64,000 nucleotides of DNA from a virus. The DNA lies in the IMG/VR virus record IMGVR_UViG_3300044712_001084, positions 1 to 64,000 of that record; one strand, given 5' to 3'. The translations under genes and the position numbers were made by a program. This document shows positions 1,158 to 37,225 of the stretch, piece by piece. Position 1 is the stretch's first letter. Every line of letters starts with the position of its first letter. The notes below the pieces were generated by a model. That model was not told the DNA's origin, ran no database searches, and worked only from the letters and a program-made list of their open reading frames with translations.

Positions 1158-2342
1158 TCAGTCACCCAGCACGAATTCCAAGGCACGTCTCAACTCTGGC
1201 GACAAGTCCACTAATTCATTGAAACCATCGAATTTGCGACCAAAGTGTTCCACGGCTGCCAGCTTGAAATCATTATCCGGCATAGCATCCAGCATGTAAG
1301 CCAGTCTGCGCTGAACGTCTGTATTGATCGTATTATCCACCCTCTTCCAGTCCAGATACACGTTGTACAGTTCTAACATCTGGAGGCAGTTGGTAAGGAA
1401 TGGATCCATAAGATAGCCGCGTTCTTTCTCAGCCGAACGCCCAGCAATCCCAGCGTCCAGAATTTTGAACACCTGGTTCAATTGCCAATCGAGGTCTTGT
1501 ATACGCGTATTGAACCCACCCGCTGGTTGCACGCCATAGTCGTAAATGGAGCCACCCTTGTAGTGCTCCACGATAGATATCGCACGATCATAATGCCTGG
1601 AATAGAGGTGGAACGATGAAATGAAATAGGTGAGTGGGCCCATATCCACGCCAGCCCAGTACGCCATCATCATATGCAGCACACTCCACTCAAAGGTATT
1701 GATGCCGCTGAAGCCCCAAAGGATATCGCTGGAGCGCTGGGCCACGTTCATACGCAGAGCCATACGGCTCTCGATTGTTTGAGAAGTGTATTTATTCTGG
1801 GTGCTGGACTTGACCACAAAGTCGCTGTGGCGAATGAGCCAGTGGATCCAATTGTTACAAGGGATATCCTTATAATCTCCATAGTCGCTGGCAGGGTCCC
1901 ATAGGCTCATGACCGCACGCCGCGTTTGCGGGTCATCATGTAAAAGGCTGGCGCACTGTTTGACTTGATCCACCTCTAGAAAGTCGGGCACCTCGTTATG
2001 GGCATGTCCCCAGTTGCGCAAGCGTGCCCCATAAGCTGCGCGCCATGTTCTTCCATCATCGGAAAAGTCCACAGCACGCGGCAGATAGCGTACCAAGAAT
2101 TCCATATCGTTGCGGCCAGCCAGTACCCATAACGTCTCTGCGATCTTGTGGAAGATATTGTCATTGCGCTTGGGTAGGATGAAGCAACGCTCAGCTGGGT
2201 TCTTGATGGTGAGCGTGACGTTGGTAAGCTCTTTTGTCTCATTACCGCGCACGACCTCGGTGACGCCATCAGCTAGCACTGTACTGAGCATATTCACCAG
2301 AGCCGCTTGCGCGTTCACGTAATTGGTGTTAATCCAATTCAT
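1158..2342 (-). CDS. Thymidylate synthase-family protein, probable dUMP hydroxymethylase
   Basis: FSDDG..AAYG.RLR, TRRAVMSLWDP, catalytic DIPCN, QRSSDILWGFSGINTF (Asn at the dUMP-specificity position), SFHLY. Confidence 0.8.
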   Translation of the reverse strand: MNWINTNYVNAQAALVNMLSTVLADGVTEVVRGNETKELTNVTLTIKNPAERCFILPKRNDNIFHKIAETLWVLAGRNDMEFLVRYLPRAVDFSDDGRTWRAAYGARLRNWGHAHNEVPDFLEVDQVKQCASLLHDDPQTRRAVMSLWDPASDYGDYKDIPCNNWIHWLIRHSDFVVKSSTQNKYTSQTIESRMALRMNVAQRSSDILWGFSGINTFEWSVLHMMMAYWAGVDMGPLTYFISSFHLYSRHYDRAISIVEHYKGGSIYDYGVQPAGGFNTRIQDLDWQLNQVFKILDAGIAGRSAEKERGYLMDPFLTNCLQMLELYNVYLDWKRVDNTINTDVQRRLAYMLDAMPDNDFKLAAVEHFGRKFDGFNELVDLSPELRRALEFVLGD

Positions 2343-2395
2343 AGCATTTCTCCCGGTAGCAAGTTTAGTCTATATATTACTAAACTTGCGAGGAC

Positions 2396-2674
2396 TCATG
2401 AATTATCCGCTAGAACCATTTTGGCTGTCGAGTGTTCCAGCTTCGTGCGCTGGAACCAGGCTTGATAATCGGCTGTATTGCCTACAGGCTCTGCGCTGTA
2501 AGCATCTGCCAATTCCACAATCACGTTGCTATAGTGCTGGGGTGTAAGCGTGGCTTGCGCTAACTCGGTAAACTGGCACTGCTCGGCAATCTTGTGGACG
2601 GCTTGGGTGTCGAACATGTTAGTCAATCCGCTAGCCCGCACTGCCTCGTACTGGTACAGTAAGGTCTGGTTCAT
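2396..2674 (-). CDS. DUF5049-like small phage protein
   Basis: QYEAVRASGLTNMFD motif. Confidence 0.6.
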   Translation of the reverse strand: MNQTLLYQYEAVRASGLTNMFDTQAVHKIAEQCQFTELAQATLTPQHYSNVIVELADAYSAEPVGNTADYQAWFQRTKLEHSTAKMVLADNS

Positions 2675-2849
2675 CTTGGTACTCCGCCATAGATATGTGT
2701 TTATGCGTAGGTCGTGGTTTGAATATCAGCAGGAACTTGTGACCGCAATGCCGACAAGTCACCCTGATGGTAGTGCTCATGTCCTGCGTCTTGGCCATAT
2801 TCCACTGCTCGCAACGAGGGCATATTACAGGACAATCGCATTCAATCAT
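2631..2849 (-). CDS. Small zinc-ribbon protein
   Basis: CPRC...CRHC; ATGA-type overlap with upstream gene. Confidence 0.55.
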   Translation of the reverse strand: MIECDCPVICPRCEQWNMAKTQDMSTTIRVTCRHCGHKFLLIFKPRPTHKHISMAEYQDEPDLTVPVRGSAG

Positions 2850-3229
2850 AATTTGCCACCCTCGTGGGCATCTGGTCGCTCCCAGAAGGTCTTGAAAGAT
2901 ACGATGCGCTCTAGAGCCTGGTCAAAATCTCCAGTAAACTGTACAGCACGATCATCCAGATATACCAAGGCTGGCACCTTATGATCGGTGACCTCTTTGA
3001 CGTAGTGGCTCAGGCCATAGTCATCCAGCCACTTGCGCACGATATCTGGATCAGCCGCTGTCATAATGACAATGTCGTAGCCATAACTCTGCAGGCTCTG
3101 CAAGAACTCCGCTATACCGTCACGCGGTGGATAGGTATAGCTAGCGCCACGCCAGCCAGTGTACGTGTCCAGCACTCCATTCCAATCAATAGCTATCTGC
3201 TTACGTGCCTCAACCCATTGTTTCGCCAT
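2846..3229 (-). CDS. HAD-superfamily phosphatase-like protein
   Basis: IAIDWNGVLD motif I; K.PA..YLDDRA motifs III/IV. Confidence 0.7.
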   Translation of the reverse strand: MAKQWVEARKQIAIDWNGVLDTYTGWRGASYTYPPRDGIAEFLQSLQSYGYDIVIMTAADPDIVRKWLDDYGLSHYVKEVTDHKVPALVYLDDRAVQFTGDFDQALERIVSFKTFWERPDAHEGGKL

Positions 3230-3256
3230 AATATTACCTCTAATATACTAAACTTG

Positions 3257-3799
3257 CTAATCCAACCTGGCCCATATGATATCACCTGGCGCGGCAAGGC
3301 TGTCTTCATAAGATATGGAATAATCCTTGTTTATCCCATATAGAGCCAGCATTACATCACCTAGCCCTGCTTCGGACCATTGCGCAGACGGTAAACCCAT
3401 CAGCCGTTTATCATCTATCAAAATGGTATGGGTCTTGATGGGGTGCCTGGCAATTATATCTAGCTCGTATAGCAATGGCGCGGCATGCTTCCCTTTTATA
3501 CCTTCTTGGATGTGGGCATCCAGCCAAAACGTTGCAGGCTCAGCGAGGTCTGCGATCATGGCTTCCAGTAATTCCTCGCTATCACCGCAAAACAGCTTGA
3601 CGTTGGGATTGTCGCCAAATCGCATCAGGCATACGTTATACCAATCTGGGCTGACCTCGATACTGCGCACTTGCTGGAAACCGTTGTCCAGTGCCATCTG
3701 AATTGTGCGCCCATCATAAGAGCCTGTTTCGATAAATACTGGATTAGCGCACTTGCTCAGCAAGGCAGCGGGCAATGTCATAGACTGACTAACTAACAT
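3257..3799 (-). CDS. Class I SAM-dependent methyltransferase-like protein
   Basis: VFIETGSYDG, SIEV, GDS, FWLDAH, ILIDD; start moved to 3799 after GGAGGA RBS. Confidence 0.7.
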   Translation of the reverse strand: MLVSQSMTLPAALLSKCANPVFIETGSYDGRTIQMALDNGFQQVRSIEVSPDWYNVCLMRFGDNPNVKLFCGDSEELLEAMIADLAEPATFWLDAHIQEGIKGKHAAPLLYELDIIARHPIKTHTILIDDKRLMGLPSAQWSEAGLGDVMLALYGINKDYSISYEDSLAAPGDIIWARLD

Positions 3800-3880
3800 G
3801 GAAGTCCTCCAATAATAAAATCCTCTGACGTGTAATATATACCTTATCACGTCAGAGGATTTTACCCGACTATAACGGCT

Positions 3881-4051
3881 CTAGCGTGCGGGAGTGACGA
3901 CCTGCTTCACCAGCGCTACTAACATGGCCACCGCTAGAACGCTCCATAGCAAGGCTCCTAGCAGACTTCCAGCCTTGTAATTGGCGACTGCCATGATAAT
4001 CATGAACAGCAAAACGATACCATAAATTACATTGCCTGATGCCCTGGCCAT
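3881..4051 (-). CDS. Small two-TM membrane protein (56 aa, not in ORF track)
   Basis: MARASGNVIYGIVLLFMIIMAV...LLWSVLAVAMLVALVKQ. Confidence 0.55.
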   Translation of the reverse strand: MARASGNVIYGIVLLFMIIMAVANYKAGSLLGALLWSVLAVAMLVALVKQVVTPAR

Positions 4052-11738: not shown

Positions 11739-13985
11739 TTAAAATACCATCCCACCGCCCATCGAGGAATTGTCCCAAAAGGCCAAGCAGACAGAGTCCC
11801 CATAGTCAGTGGATCTACCCAGCCGCTCAGATATGTCGTTTTTACTTTCCAGCTTGATTACAGCGTCTTTTTGCATCTCATACTTGGGCGTAGATAGGTC
11901 CAGCACGAGTTCTTCCACCGGAGGGAGCATAACTTCAGAGCCGTATTCTGGATCCAATAGTTCCCGCATATTCCACCACATCGCAGCGCGTACATTTAGG
12001 AAGCGTAACTCCTTGCTACGATCCACCCAGGTCGTTCCACCCGACACCGTTATGGGTCGCAGCAGTGGTACATTGGACTCGTGTAATATATCGTAGAGCG
12101 ATGCGCCAAGCCCTCCATCAGTCTCGATATGCAACTCATAGCCTCTGGAAAGACTCTTGACGTAGCCAGCAAGGGATGTAATTGGAAGCTTCGAAAAGTA
12201 GTACATGTCGGAGATGACCAAGCGTTGTCTCCGTGCGCACACGGTTTTGTCAACCCCAGCACGCGCCACGTCCACGCCCAGGGCACGCTTGCCAGATTGC
12301 GGAGTCCTCCCGTTGGCGTGCCAAGCCTTCCAGCGCTCTGTAGCAGCCCTTATCCACGACAAAGGTATAACACCCTCTTCGCTAGAGTCAGCGAACTCCC
12401 CCAGGACGCGATTGAGGAATATAGAAGAGGACGCGCCCCACTGGCGCTCCCTCTGGCGTACCCACTCGCTAGATATGCGCCCTGCCTTTATGGCTTCATC
12501 CACTGTTACATGTCTAGTCTTCCAATCCTCATACCCTGGCTTATGGGAGTGGATGTCGTAGAATTGGCCTGATGGATCTCCAGGGGTAGATATGGCGAAT
12601 GCGAATGCCTCATCTGTAGTACCATCGTGAACGCTGGCTTCCTGGTTAGAACCCATTGTACCATCGACCTCTCTGGGTTGCTGGGTTTTGCTGGGTAGTG
12701 GGTTAGTATGGGATGCCCTGGTTCCCTGGGTTCCTATGGGTTGCTGGGATATGCTGGTAGCCCTTGGGTTGCTGGATTCCCTGGGTCGTTGGGAAGTATG
12801 GACGCGATGGAGCACGCCAGAGGTGCGTGGACTCGATGGCTCAGGTTGGCTGGGGTGGTGTGGGGCAAAACCCACGTTATCACCCACTTTCGAAGCCACT
12901 CCCTCCCCCAAGCCATCACCCACTCCCTCACCCAAGTTATCCCCCATACCAAACTCCACTCCCTGATCCACGCTTATACCCACTCCCTCCCCCATACTTT
13001 CTAACCCATCCCTAATACCCATCCCTGACATTCCAAGACTGATAGCTGCTGCTCCATCCGTTATTCTTCCACTCTTTACTCTATCCCTAATACTAGCCTC
13101 CCTTACGCTATCCACTCCCTTTACGCTATTGCTTACGATCTCCGAGAATGGACCTCCAATCAAATTTTTCACAACCGCTAGCCCACTCGCATTAGTGGCT
13201 ATACTAGGTGCTGGGTTCAGCTGGACTGCCTCCACAACCACTTTTCCTTTTATACCACCGTTGAATGGTAATCGCGTGATGGCCATCTTACCAGCGTATT
13301 TGCTACCATCCTTTAGCGCTTCCCATCTATCGATATTTGGATCACCCTCTGTGTCCTCGATTGCCATCTTGATATTCTTGGCATTGCTAAATGCGCCCTC
13401 TGCTGCATCCCAAGTCACTCTTGGAATAGCCTTGGCCTCATCGAATATGTATGTTAATCTTCTGGCGTGAGCACCCTCTATCGTATTATGATCGTCAGAT
13501 GCCACTGCGAATGCCTCCACTGTTCCAGATGACAATCGTATGGCTAATGACAAGAACTCTTTGTTGGGATCATATGGCTCTCTACCTATCAATGCCCAAT
13601 CCAAATGCCCAGCCAACTTTCTTATCTCTGGCCATAGGTACTTTTCTAACTGGCGCCATGCACTTGCCGTGGTTATAGTCTTGGCATCTGCCTCTGCTGT
13701 TAGCACTGAATGATGGGTTAGCAATGCTGCCATAAACGTCTTGCCTAATCCATGTGGACCTCTGACTGCCACTCTAGTATAGCCCTCGTCATAATACCCA
13801 AGAATTTCTTCCTGGTAAAATGCTAGCCTCTTGCCTAATGCGCCCAGCATATCGTATGCGAATGCTACCCTGTCTTTAGCATACATGCGCTGGAATTTGC
13901 GGAACTTGCCTGACGTGGATATCTGGGCATGGATAGCCAGCGAGAGGTCTGCTAAGTTGCCTGGTGTGCCAATTGACTGTAACAT
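11739..13985 (-). CDS. terL: Terminase large subunit with ~250-aa low-complexity insertion
   Basis: Walker A GPHGLGKT, Walker B YIFDEA, coupling motif ISTP, nuclease GVDVA...D...SxDYGD. Confidence 0.9.
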   Translation of the reverse strand: MLQSIGTPGNLADLSLAIHAQISTSGKFRKFQRMYAKDRVAFAYDMLGALGKRLAFYQEEILGYYDEGYTRVAVRGPHGLGKTFMAALLTHHSVLTAEADAKTITTASAWRQLEKYLWPEIRKLAGHLDWALIGREPYDPNKEFLSLAIRLSSGTVEAFAVASDDHNTIEGAHARRLTYIFDEAKAIPRVTWDAAEGAFSNAKNIKMAIEDTEGDPNIDRWEALKDGSKYAGKMAITRLPFNGGIKGKVVVEAVQLNPAPSIATNASGLAVVKNLIGGPFSEIVSNSVKGVDSVREASIRDRVKSGRITDGAAAISLGMSGMGIRDGLESMGEGVGISVDQGVEFGMGDNLGEGVGDGLGEGVASKVGDNVGFAPHHPSQPEPSSPRTSGVLHRVHTSQRPRESSNPRATSISQQPIGTQGTRASHTNPLPSKTQQPREVDGTMGSNQEASVHDGTTDEAFAFAISTPGDPSGQFYDIHSHKPGYEDWKTRHVTVDEAIKAGRISSEWVRQRERQWGASSSIFLNRVLGEFADSSEEGVIPLSWIRAATERWKAWHANGRTPQSGKRALGVDVARAGVDKTVCARRQRLVISDMYYFSKLPITSLAGYVKSLSRGYELHIETDGGLGASLYDILHESNVPLLRPITVSGGTTWVDRSKELRFLNVRAAMWWNMRELLDPEYGSEVMLPPVEELVLDLSTPKYEMQKDAVIKLESKNDISERLGRSTDYGDSVCLAFWDNSSMGGGMVF

Positions 13986-14129
13986 GTGGTTATCCTGTCT
14001 TTACTAGCCTGGAATGCTAATCCTTGGCTAGCCTTGGAATAGATGGACTAATGGTAATGGACTTTGGAATTACAAAGGCTAGCCAAGAGATATCCCTGGC
14101 TAGCCTTATGGCCTGTAAATATATACCGA

Positions 14130-16274
14130 TTAGATCATTACAAAATCATTGATCTGGACCGTTCCACCGTCTACCTTTATATCCACTGTATGCGATCCAC
14201 GCCCAGCGTACCATATCAATTGATGTAACATATATTGCGATATATTCCATGACGCTGACCATGAGCCTCCATCTATACGCCAGGAGAATGACCCACCCGT
14301 TCCAGAAGCGCTCATGCCGAATGACGCAAACGTACCGCTATATGAGATTGTACTACCCGCTGAAGATGATGATCTAGCCGTTCCCACCGTTGTCCAGGTA
14401 CCAGTTTCACCGTCATTAGCAGTGCCTAGTTTGGTTACTGGCTCATATTCAAAATCTACGCTTTCACTATACAGTCTGCTTGGCAATGGCGGTGTCCAAT
14501 CCTGCGTTATATTAGGAAATGGAGTGACTGCCCAGGCTGCTTTGAAGGCATTGGTAATCGTGGTATGACCCAGATCGTTGGGGTGAACGTCATTATGCGC
14601 TGGAAAATATTTGTCTATGTTTACTTGCGTCAGAGGTTCACCCTCTATGGTGCGAATTTCAGTAGCTAGATTAGCTCCAATTTGTAAGCCATAATGCGTT
14701 GCAAGAGCTAACCATAGATCACGCGCAGCACGTTTGGTAGCGTCCATTAGGTCGTGTTCGTCTGGCCATGTATATATACCCAAACTTATGGCCGCGTTCG
14801 GCATAAGTGTGCGGATACGTCTTATAAGCGCTTCGGCAGCACCTCTAGCGTAATTAGGCGCAGAGCCTCTCAAAAATACCTCGCCATCATTGACGGCATA
14901 ATCTATAACAACCATGTCTGGAATTACTGCTTGCAATTCTGCCATTCTAGCTAGCGATGTCCAAGAGCCGCACCCACTATTGGATAACGAGGTACGAACG
15001 TATTTTTTATCACGATATGTAGTATTCCACCACGTAATTAGCTGTGTCTGGAATGGATTAGTGGACGTGCCTCCAGCTGTTATGCTACCACCTATGAACA
15101 GCACTTGTTCCGGTGGGTTCAGGTCAGAGTCAGTAAAAAAACCTTGCAAGTTGTCCCACTCTCCGTCTGTGCCTATGGCCCACAAACTAGCCTCTCCGGT
15201 GGCGAACCCGCTAGCTGTAGCGGTGGTGGCTGTGGCGTTGAATGCTTGAGTGGTGGAATGCTTAGCTGTAACACCAACGTAAGTTTTGATGGTAGAACCG
15301 TTGGCAGTTATGTAAATATAGTAAGTTGTGCCGTTTGTCCAAGTTTGGGTTTTGCCAGCATCTAACTCGGTATCAACTCCGGCTTCGCGTTTATATAGCT
15401 TGATCGTATTGGCCGATTGAGTACATACCAATTTCAGGCAGTTGTCATCATCCGTGCGCCTGAATAATAGCGTCAATACGTCATTAGTGGCGCAAACCCA
15501 TTTGGCAACCATATGCGTATTAGCGCTACCAGTGAGTACAGCGCCAGAGGTGGCGCTGTAGGCAGACGCTGCTCCAAATTGCGTAGCTAACCCTGATACA
15601 GCTTGCGAGGCATCTGCGCAACGTAAGAACGCTATTTGACTGGTTCTATAGGTCGTCATTACAAATGGATATTCGTTCCCACCGCTGCCTTCTGTAACGC
15701 GCAATAAAGTGTAATGCGGATAGCTAGTGCCAGACTTTATAAAATATAGCGCTCCATTATTAGGTCGCAATATAACTGCCAAATCATGATACACGGCCAC
15801 GTTGCTATATGAACCTACTCCAGCAATATCCGTGCCCATCTCACGTAAGCCAACCGATACTGAGTTGGTATTGTATTGACCCAGAGCTAGCATAACACCT
15901 TGATTGTTAATACCTGTAGCAGTTCTAGCGCCAGCAAATCCGACTCTAGGACCGACCACGCCAGCGGTGGATACGTTATTATGATATACTCTGGCAAATA
16001 CTCCAGCGCCATTAGCACGCGTGACGGAATCTAACCATAAAATTGGATCTGCTACGCTACCACCGCCAGATGAAAAAACCAATTCACCATTGGCTATAGT
16101 TATATAATGCCCAGTATCTACTACCAAACGATTGCCTGGCCCAGGCTCTGCTGGAGTACCGTTGACGTTATCCACCAAGCGTGCAGTATCAAACTCATCG
16201 CGCATTAGATAACGATAACTAATGCCGCTGGATGATCTATTGAATGCTAAGCGATTTATGCGCAAATTATTCAT
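14130..16274 (-). CDS. Virion/tail-associated protein with SGNH hydrolase domain
   Basis: FIGGSIT, DYAVND, DVHPNDLGH; beta-rich N-terminal region. Confidence 0.7.
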   Translation of the reverse strand: MNNLRINRLAFNRSSSGISYRYLMRDEFDTARLVDNVNGTPAEPGPGNRLVVDTGHYITIANGELVFSSGGGSVADPILWLDSVTRANGAGVFARVYHNNVSTAGVVGPRVGFAGARTATGINNQGVMLALGQYNTNSVSVGLREMGTDIAGVGSYSNVAVYHDLAVILRPNNGALYFIKSGTSYPHYTLLRVTEGSGGNEYPFVMTTYRTSQIAFLRCADASQAVSGLATQFGAASAYSATSGAVLTGSANTHMVAKWVCATNDVLTLLFRRTDDDNCLKLVCTQSANTIKLYKREAGVDTELDAGKTQTWTNGTTYYIYITANGSTIKTYVGVTAKHSTTQAFNATATTATASGFATGEASLWAIGTDGEWDNLQGFFTDSDLNPPEQVLFIGGSITAGGTSTNPFQTQLITWWNTTYRDKKYVRTSLSNSGCGSWTSLARMAELQAVIPDMVVIDYAVNDGEVFLRGSAPNYARGAAEALIRRIRTLMPNAAISLGIYTWPDEHDLMDATKRAARDLWLALATHYGLQIGANLATEIRTIEGEPLTQVNIDKYFPAHNDVHPNDLGHTTITNAFKAAWAVTPFPNITQDWTPPLPSRLYSESVDFEYEPVTKLGTANDGETGTWTTVGTARSSSSAGSTISYSGTFASFGMSASGTGGSFSWRIDGGSWSASWNISQYMLHQLIWYAGRGSHTVDIKVDGGTVQINDFVMI

Positions 16275-36361: not shown

Positions 36362-37225
36362 CTAGCCGCGCACCGCATCACGCTGCTTGCGCGTCTGGTA
36401 TTCAGGCTTGTACTTTTCCACGCCCATGTGTTCGCGCATGGCCTGGGTCAGCCGAATCATGTTGACGCGTTCGTCTTTGTCATCTTCCCACTTCACACCC
36501 TCTTTCTTGGCGCGATTGCGCTTTTCAGCGGCAGTGAGTTGATTCCATTCCTCGTCAAACTTGAGGTACTCCTGCGTGCAGACCTCTTCGAGGTAGGCTT
36601 TGCCAGTCAGCTTGCCGGCAGCGCTAGCGGCAGCGCGTCCAGAGGCAGGGCCAACCGTCCATTTACCATCAGCCGTCTTGGTGATGACGATCACCTGACC
36701 AGTGCTCATGGCTTCCATCATAGCGGGCAGCAATTCTTCCATGACCTGGCTGGACACGGTTTTGAGTTTCAGGCTGGGAGCGGCAACTTTGGCTGGCGCT
36801 TCTTCAACCACGTCTTCTTCCACAACCGGGTCCGGCTCAACGATCTTGGCCACAGGCTTGGCGGCTGGCTTCACGGCAACTTTGGCGGCTGGCGGAGGCA
36901 CAACGACTTTCTTGGCGGGAGCGGCTGGAGGCTCAACCTTCGCGGCTGGCTTGGCGGCTGGCTTGGCGGCAACTGGCGGCACAACAACTTTCTTAGTGGA
37001 GACGGTGGGAACCACTGCCTTCTTGGTCGGCTTGGCGGGAGGCTCAGGCTCTTCTTCCTCGTCAGCGTCATCCGCTTCGGCATCATCTTCTTCGACATCC
37101 ACATCGATGTCTTCCGGCTCAACCTGGGTGTCCAGGACTTCTTCCACTTCTTCCTCTTCCACAGGCTTGGAAGCAGGTTTGCCAATACGTCTTCGAACTA
37201 CCATGATAATCCTCTCTTTACGCAA
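36362..37225 (-). CDS. Acidic + Pro/Ala/Lys-rich protein with globular C-terminus
   Basis: E/D-rich N-terminus, AKPAAK repeats. Confidence 0.65.
   Translation of the reverse strand: MRKERIIMVVRRRIGKPASKPVEEEEVEEVLDTQVEPEDIDVDVEEDDAEADDADEEEEPEPPAKPTKKAVVPTVSTKKVVVPPVAAKPAAKPAAKVEPPAAPAKKVVVPPPAAKVAVKPAAKPVAKIVEPDPVVEEDVVEEAPAKVAAPSLKLKTVSSQVMEELLPAMMEAMSTGQVIVITKTADGKWTVGPASGRAAASAAGKLTGKAYLEEVCTQEYLKFDEEWNQLTAAEKRNRAKKEGVKWEDDKDERVNMIRLTQAMREHMGVEKYKPEYQTRKQRDAVRG

Follow-up and report, generated by a model that had tools for sequence, protein, structure and literature searches.

A long, predicted disordered loop in the ATPase core of a metagenomic phage large terminase subunit coincides with a sharp intragenic GC-skew flip

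The window analysed here is a 64,000-nt stretch of the virus record IMGVR_UViG_3300044712_001084, which comes from an uncultured soil phage, namely the first 64 kb of a 74,005-nt IMG/VR record in which every gene lies on the minus strand. Its gene terL encodes P0001, a large terminase subunit (TerL) of 748 residues, the ATPase domain of which is interrupted between the Walker B helix and motif III by an insert of 262 residues that is predicted to be disordered. At the DNA level the insert harbors an abrupt switch between a G-rich and a C-rich segment, which a sequence-only reading of the window had tentatively attributed to a packaging (pac) site, genome terminus or origin hidden within a coding region. 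The features of the locus are as follows, numbered by their positions in the window.

11739-13985, minus strand: terL, encoding the large terminase subunit P0001 (748 aa), assigned from its open reading frame (ORF), phrog_2, Foldseek and tblastn.
13386-13985, minus strand: first part of the ATPase domain (residues 1-200), ending in the helix WDAAEGAFS, delimited by sequence, invariant columns and a predicted local distance difference test score (pLDDT) of 94-98.
13737-13760, minus strand: Walker A motif GPHGLGKT (residues 76-83), from the sequence.
13434-13451, minus strand: Walker B motif YIFDEA (residues 179-184), from the sequence.
12600-13385, minus strand: loop insert (residues 201-462, 262 aa), delimited by homologue alignment, pLDDT of 30-47 and the open TerL frame.
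12871-13130, minus strand: arm rich in G on the coding strand and in C on the plus strand, a Gly/acidic segment with GEGVG and GDGL units and a 12-nt in-frame period, from base composition and repeats.
12860-12875, no strand assigned: mini-hairpin GTGGG-gcaaaa-CCCAC at the flip, from the sequence, with the protein junction ...VGF/APHHPS...
12670-12866, minus strand: arm rich in C on the coding strand and in G on the plus strand, a Pro/Ser/Thr/Gln/His/Arg segment with repeated CCCAGCAACCC units, from base composition.
12582-12590, minus strand: motif III STP (residues 466-468), from the sequence.
11739-12599, minus strand: remainder of the ATPase domain (FAISTP strand) and the RNase H-like nuclease domain, from invariant residues, pLDDT above 90 and Foldseek.

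Profile search revealed that P0001 matches the PHROG family phrog_2 'terminase large subunit' at an E-value of 7e-28, in two stretches. Structural similarity search using Foldseek with an AlphaFold2 model, which was computed with a 119-sequence alignment, gave the TerL gp2 of Sf6 as the top match (E 1.6e-14). The nuclease domain of P0001 resembles those of the TerLs of E217, Sf6 and G20c, with a TM-score by target of 0.6-0.7, reaching 0.68-0.70 for E217 and Sf6. Across 119 relatives, the ATPase columns G81, K82, D182, E183, E196, G197, A198 and F199 are invariant, as are S466, T467, P468, D572 and D632, with D623 and D727 being nearly so. P0001 therefore displays the hallmarks of a TerL, that is, an ATPase with Walker A, Walker B and motif III, an acidic RNase H-like nuclease, and matches in both profile and fold. 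Judged from these residues, the catalytic core appears intact despite the insert, as Walker A, Walker B, motif III and the acidic residues of the nuclease are all kept. In the Pfam search of P0001 every terminase model stayed below its threshold, which places the protein in a remote TerL lineage; phmmer against the PDB gave no match either, and a fold search was required to find structural relatives. The split outcome of the profile searches, with no Pfam domain and a PHROG match in two stretches, results from the interruption of the TerL core by the loop.

The helix WDAAEGAFS ends at residue 200 and the strand FAISTP begins at residue 463, leaving 262 residues between them, in good agreement with the roughly 258 low-complexity codons counted here in the sequence-only reading. 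Relatives without the insert have 11-12 residues at the same connector, the short 12-residue form being of the TEGLSDDYDAIA type, so that P0001 carries about 250 extra residues. Among the best 120 metagenomic TerL homologues, the connector ranges from 11 to 326 aa: it mostly measures 11-12 aa and sometimes 16-19 aa, reaches 38-46 aa in one separate clade, and spans 94-326 aa in 51 proteins. In a tree built on the TerL core with the insert left out, these 51 long-loop TerLs form one exclusive clade, with a support of 0.80 and a mean depth of 0.63 substitutions per site. None of the 51 members has a short loop, the minimum being 94 aa, and the sister group has 11-16 aa at the connector, with one member at 77. 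The exclusiveness of the clade, the lack of any short-loop member and the short-loop sister group make a single ancient insertion in the clade ancestor, never lost since, the simplest history suggested by these sequences. Conserved ends of the form N/T-E/A-G-L ... Y-E-A-x-A border the long inserts and the short forms alike.

Two further TerL groups depart from the short connector. The separate clade with 38-46 aa (P0064, P0077, P0083, P0084, P0087, P0090, P0093, P0103, P0104, P0106 and P0110-P0112) shows recognisable conservation in its insert (TEGLxxPDxxAVxxLSTDDELY...), suggesting that the same permissive loop was elaborated independently there, probably into a structured form. In addition, a distant TerL relative (L149, positions 1501-4035, 45% identity) matches over 2.5 kb, and a regular-expression scan found its Walker B helix motif but no FAISTP within 3 kb downstream; it may carry a different large interruption.

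Turnover of the insert, in both sequence and length, exceeds that of the TerL core more than tenfold. Pairs of proteins with a core identity of 96-98% share only 57-83% identity in the insert and, with one pair excepted, differ there by 17-51 gap positions, and the insert of P0001 is only 19-26% identical to those of its closest relatives. No k-mers common to the inserts of the whole clade were found beyond chance; the only shared motifs are those of subclades, such as FNPPP in five inserts and QPGL in eight. Such hypervariability without a common motif is what would be expected of neutral baggage, namely a tolerated, slippage-prone expansion that has no function and in which only the frame is selected, since the nuclease domain lies downstream. 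However, despite frequent indels, none of the 51 clade members has fallen below 94 residues over a depth of 0.63 substitutions per site; as phage genomes face size pressure, a neutral loop would be expected to have been lost in some lineages. Together with the conserved compositional order described below, this leads us to consider an entirely functionless loop unlikely.

For comparison at the DNA level, IMG/VR and JGI/ENA contigs were searched with tblastn and for motifs without recourse to gene calls, which yielded 13 distinct long inserts of relatives (390-855 nt). All 14 long inserts, including that of P0001, have a length that is a multiple of three and no stop codon in the TerL frame, whereas the other two sense frames contain 10-42 stops, with 15 and 21 for the window insert. 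This pattern strongly indicates that the insert is translated as part of TerL, in line with the earlier proposal that it is kept in frame as a loop. Two antisense ORFs, at 12688-12966 and 12708-13004, were considered as genes and rejected as by-products of the biased composition, for the antisense frames of the relatives nearly always carry stops.

An insert that is open throughout could still be removed before the mature enzyme is formed, by an unrecognised intron, which had been raised as an alternative from the start, by a degenerate intein or by translational bypass. Introns and inteins are generally common in TerL genes, the relative P0017 has a LAGLIDADG domain, and what is interrupted here is a conserved catalytic core. 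Nevertheless, an Rfam search over 12300-13700 with E-values up to 1 returned no match, group I and II introns included, and a non-coding intron would have no need of a frame that is open in all 14 inserts and only there; the intron was therefore rejected. The intein was rejected as well, as had been anticipated from the sequence: Pfam detected no Hint or LAGLIDADG/endonuclease domain in P0001, and the insert begins with NAKN and ends with DEAFA followed by FAISTP, lacking both a Cys/Ser/Thr start and a His-Asn junction. Moreover, it is located in a variable loop, the conserved ends of which are found around the short forms as well. Altogether, we regard removal of the insert by any of these routes as extremely improbable. 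P0017 itself (942 aa, ENA), a member of the insert clade, contains a LAGLIDADG_3 domain (PF14528), i.e. an intein, which must lie elsewhere in the protein because the loop at the connector is only 98 aa; this TerL lineage thus hosts true inteins besides the disordered loop.

The insert is no assembly artefact, a concern attached to the original observation, because a second rhizosphere study yielded contigs identical to the window over 12221-12866 and 12954-13174. Two rhizosphere runs, examined as Logan contigs, contain sequence of this phage; they are the only ones found to do so, and no RNA run is listed with them. In one of them (run X2), a single low-depth contig ends at 12866 and positions 12867-12953 are without a contig; at a depth of 2-5x and in such repeat-rich sequence, this end is uninformative on a terminus.

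The AlphaFold2 model of P0001 has a pLDDT of 30-47 and no secondary structure over residues ~205-450, compared to values above 90 in the core. Searching the ESM Atlas with the insert found no look-alike, all scores being below 0.9 and TM-scores at most 0.25. In composition, the loop is enriched in Asn, Ser, Pro and Asp and depleted in Trp, Cys and Phe. The low pLDDT, the biased composition, the rapid change in sequence and length and the frame kept in all 14 cases are those of a disordered loop, and the insert is thus predicted to be an intrinsically disordered loop inside a confident TerL fold, as the sequence-only reading had also supposed. A fully disordered loop, if the prediction holds, would equally suit neutral baggage.

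Within the insert, the two arms encode distinct halves of the loop. The arm that is G-rich on the coding strand encodes ...GMSGMGIRDGLESMGEGVGISVDQGVEFGMGDNLGEGVGDGLGEGV... from Gly, Glu, Asp and Val codons, whereas the C-rich arm encodes ...PHHPSQPEPSSPRTS...SQQPIGTQGT...KTQQPRE from Pro, Ser, Thr, Gln and His codons. This arrangement is repeated in the 51 inserts of the clade, where GDEV-type residues prevail in the first deciles and PTHQS-type residues in deciles 7-9; 90% of the inserts score negative at decile 8. In the DNA, a G-rich segment precedes a C-rich one on the coding strand in all 14 inserts, and comparison with codon shuffles gives p<0.05 for 13. The persistence of this compositional order, seen in every one of the 14 DNA inserts and in roughly 90% of the 51 inserts at the protein level, argues against a loop without function.

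On the plus strand, the GGG/T-rich sequence noticed over 12670-12866 and the CCC/A-rich sequence over 12871-13130 were both confirmed: the skew rises to +0.36 over 12650-12850 and falls to -0.86 over 12900-13000. They hold the extreme windows of the genome: among all 150-nt windows of the 74,005 nt, the one beginning at 12682 is the richest in G and the one beginning at 12877 the richest in C. The flip score at 12877 is 1.21, compared to 0.68 for the next largest in the genome, with a standard deviation of 0.16. By codon position (1/2/3), the G-rich arm has G frequencies of 0.59/0.38/0.37 and C frequencies of 0.02/0.09/0.08, and the C-rich arm has C frequencies of 0.42/0.41/0.42.

The insert is also rich in repeats, including a 12-nt periodic family and repeats of the CTGGGTTGCTGG type. 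A C-rich repeat that had been counted at least four times corresponds to CCACTCCCT, for which 0.42 occurrences are expected and five are present, none of them outside 12896-13120. The window insert contains 36 repeated 9-mers, compared to 2.9 expected, and 27 of the 36 repeat distances are in frame; repeated 9-mers are enriched in the inserts of two relatives (L016 and L018) as well. Repeats of this kind are typical of slippage, as neutral baggage would predict. In 12 of 13 relatives, the insert is poorer in G+C than the TerL coding sequence around it (e.g. 0.35-0.47 versus 0.45-0.54; equal in L094; relatives listed for this comparison: L002, L004, L005, L015-L020, L092-L095 and L106), as is often so in weakly constrained sequence, another point in favor of a functionless loop. 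The window insert exceeds the other inserts in G+C and about equals its flank (0.55 versus 0.56). The flip is best read as the boundary between a Gly/acidic and a Pro/Ser/Thr/Gln/His half of codons, viewed on the non-coding strand, and in the window it is best read as exaggerated by recent 12-nt in-frame duplications and the higher G+C.

We consider it likely that a translated, slippage-driven, intrinsically disordered TerL loop explains the finding as a whole. The loop would go back to a single insertion, in the ancestor of a phage clade from soil, sediment and groundwater, at the short connector that leads from the helix after Walker B to the β-strand of motif III (STP). In-frame duplication and slippage would then have lengthened, shortened and rewritten it, retaining the reading frame, a minimum of ~90 residues and the compositional order, with the Gly/acidic, purine-rich half first and the Pro/Ser/Thr/Gln/His, C-rich half second. 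By analogy with ASCE ATPases, the connector probably runs into the strand at the sheet edge that is remote from the nucleotide pocket, where a floppy surface loop would leave catalysis undisturbed. The loop may be retained for its bulk properties, i.e. its length, its flexibility and the succession of an acidic/Gly-rich and a Pro/Ser/Thr-rich half, as no sequence-specific site seems to be required in it. Candidate roles include an entropic spacer or tether within the motor, limiting premature oligomerisation, docking of a partner and shielding against host sensors. Whether the loop is selected or merely tolerated is, within this explanation, about evenly balanced.

Several points weigh against this explanation. 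A nucleotide-level force also acts on the arms, as seen at four-fold degenerate sites when the arms were set from codon positions 1 and 2 only and the codon family was controlled against the flanking TerL. Four-fold sites of the C-rich arm hold 113 C compared to 58 expected (z 7.9), and still 84 compared to 45 (z 6.2) after the three repeat-rich loci were removed, whereas those of the G-rich arm are depleted in C (z -4.6) and enriched in A (z 3.8). Because four-fold degenerate sites follow the polarity of the arms, the composition is not purely a matter of amino-acid choice, and the sequence-only reading was right in that part of the skew is a nucleotide-level signal. In addition, the position of the loop relative to the motor ring is deduced from fold topology, and the case for a protein that carries the loop is built from sequence evidence. 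Retention in all 51 clade members is suggestive but is in itself no test of selection, and the closest pair at the DNA level has a core identity of 77%, with synonymous sites saturated for dN/dS. For the synonymous-site polarity, slippage combined with inherited composition is perhaps the most economical explanation, since local duplication or slippage copies all three codon positions and ancestral local composition would therefore be preserved.

The same polarity invites the converse view, which extends the one first put forward for this locus, that the arms act as DNA or RNA, in the form of a pac array, an R-loop or origin, G-quadruplexes (G4) or an mRNA structure, with the loop in the protein as a mere by-product. 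A local skew flip stronger than any other in the genome, a polarity that recurs in 14 of 14 inserts and reaches four-fold degenerate sites, and the presence in the window of canonical G4 motifs (G3+N1-7 x4), two on the coding strand and one on the template strand, would all fit an element of this kind. So would the predicted fold of the window insert, in which 95 of 124 base pairs span the flip. Comparison with the 13 relatives, however, revealed no sequence, hairpin or motif shared at the flips or in the inserts, and none of the eight relatives tested has a G4 motif; neither a common DNA-level element nor conserved G4 tracts thus support this view. Moreover, the repeats are 12 nt long and in frame, like coding duplications.

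Folding analysis does not single out the insert either. The mini-hairpin is indeed present at the switch, as described, but its significance and conservation did not hold up: its z is -1.19, and 23 of 200 shuffles fold equally well. The window insert has a z of -1.4 against composition-preserving block shuffles and -0.7 against global shuffles; the z values of the relatives scatter from -5.0 to +2.5, and 13 of the 14 inserts are less stably folded per nucleotide than the flanking coding sequence. Thus no consistent signal of a specific RNA or single-stranded DNA hairpin emerged from block and global shuffles, from the flip window compared with other windows, or from the mini-hairpin. Promoter-like and terminator-like sites in the insert are at chance level.

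At the scale of the genome, the cumulative GC skew, which had been proposed as a check, falls monotonically from 0 to -3667 over 74 kb with a mere local wiggle at 12.7-13.1 kb, and no inflection that would be the sign of an origin or terminus lies at the insert. The pac sites of P22, SPP1 and Sf6 lie within or beside the small terminase gene, outside the ATPase core of TerL. The genome ends, 1-127 and 73879-74005, form a direct terminal repeat of exactly 127 nt. A k-mer of 127 is a common largest setting of assemblers, and this coincidence in length suggests that the record is probably a circular or permuted assembly with an arbitrary coordinate 1. A packaging site at the insert is unsupported, and the functional pac, terminus or origin proposed for its DNA finds no counterpart in shared sequence, cumulative skew, repeats or folding; we judge it very improbable that the arms act primarily as nucleic acid.

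The loop might be a selected, fast-evolving appendage, serving either as a steric shield or decoy against host sensors or through a function at the nucleic-acid level that underlies the polarity; we give this reading a rather small chance. In the former variant, the loop may bar NLR-like sensors of the Avs type, which sense the TerL fold, from the ATPase, and both the retention of the loop and its arms-race-like turnover would thereby be explained. Avs-type sensors are reported to recognise TerL (PMC11564622). In the latter variant, the polarity may, for instance, favor R-loops or make translation pause between the first and the second half of the ATPase.

The surroundings of terL contain other features. 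The palindrome GGCTAGCC occurs in three exact copies within 80 nt (14026-14105) in the intergenic region 13986-14129, just upstream of the terL start, and five times in the whole window compared to 1.3 expected, with copies in the similar contexts TTGGCTAGCCTTGG and CTGGCTAGCCTTA. This array could be an operator or another protein-binding array before terL, and it is a better candidate than the insert for a packaging or regulatory site near the gene. The gene directly upstream of terL (14130-16274, minus strand) encodes a protein of 714 aa with a GDSL-like lipase/acylhydrolase domain (PF13472, E 1.5e-12, residues 393-570) and a low-entropy stretch at residues 621-676. PHROG search of the neighboring genes of terL gave no matches, and a small terminase was not recognised beside it. 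By far the longest low-entropy protein segment of the genome lies in the ORF 36362-37204 (minus strand, residues 8-150 of 280), and it is lower in complexity than the TerL loop by a simple entropy measure.

TerL is a highly conserved and well-studied phage enzyme, and its gene serves as a hallmark for finding viruses. That a whole clade maintains 94-326 disordered residues in its ATPase core marks the connector between Walker B and motif III as a permissive site, which could be useful for tagging or engineering packaging motors. The loop also provides a natural test case of how viruses, for which genome space is costly, maintain disorder through its bulk properties while the sequence is not conserved. 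Recurring as it does, and at synonymous sites too, the compositional polarity is a regularity that deserves attention. More generally, a sharp GC-skew flip within a gene can stem from amino-acid composition and slippage, and not necessarily from a cis-acting site.

P0001 shares the fold of an ASCE ATPase followed by an RNase H-like nuclease with the solved TerLs of Sf6 (gp2, PDB 4IDH and 4IFE), D6E (PDB 5OE8), HK97 (PDB 6Z6D) and T4 (gp17, PDB 3CPE), from which its sequence is too remote for phmmer against the PDB. To our knowledge, the connector from the helix after Walker B to the motif III strand is short in the solved TerLs, and our literature search brought up no account of a TerL with a long disordered insert at this position. 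The nearest metagenomic relatives outside the insert clade have 11-19 connector residues, compared to 262 in P0001. The closest annotated TerLs in tblastn are those of Actinoplanes phage phiAsp2 (Pas60) and of Streptomyces phages such as TurkishDelight, with 45-47% identity in both halves; they match in two pieces that skip the insert, and their genes of ~1.35-1.4 kb have no long loop.

Terminase inteins and introns are likewise large interruptions of TerL genes at or near catalytic motifs. Compared to them, the insert of P0001 shows neither splice junction residues nor a Hint or endonuclease domain, matches no intron RNA family, and has a frame that is open in all members. The loop shares features with the disordered loop expansions known from conserved enzymes, which are also in-frame, repeat-rich, fast-evolving, long-lived, restricted to a clade and located at surface loops. 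It differs from these in lying within an ATPase core between Walker B and motif III, in its length of up to 326 aa across the clade, and in a conserved polarity, purine-rich first and then C-rich, that is visible even at synonymous sites.

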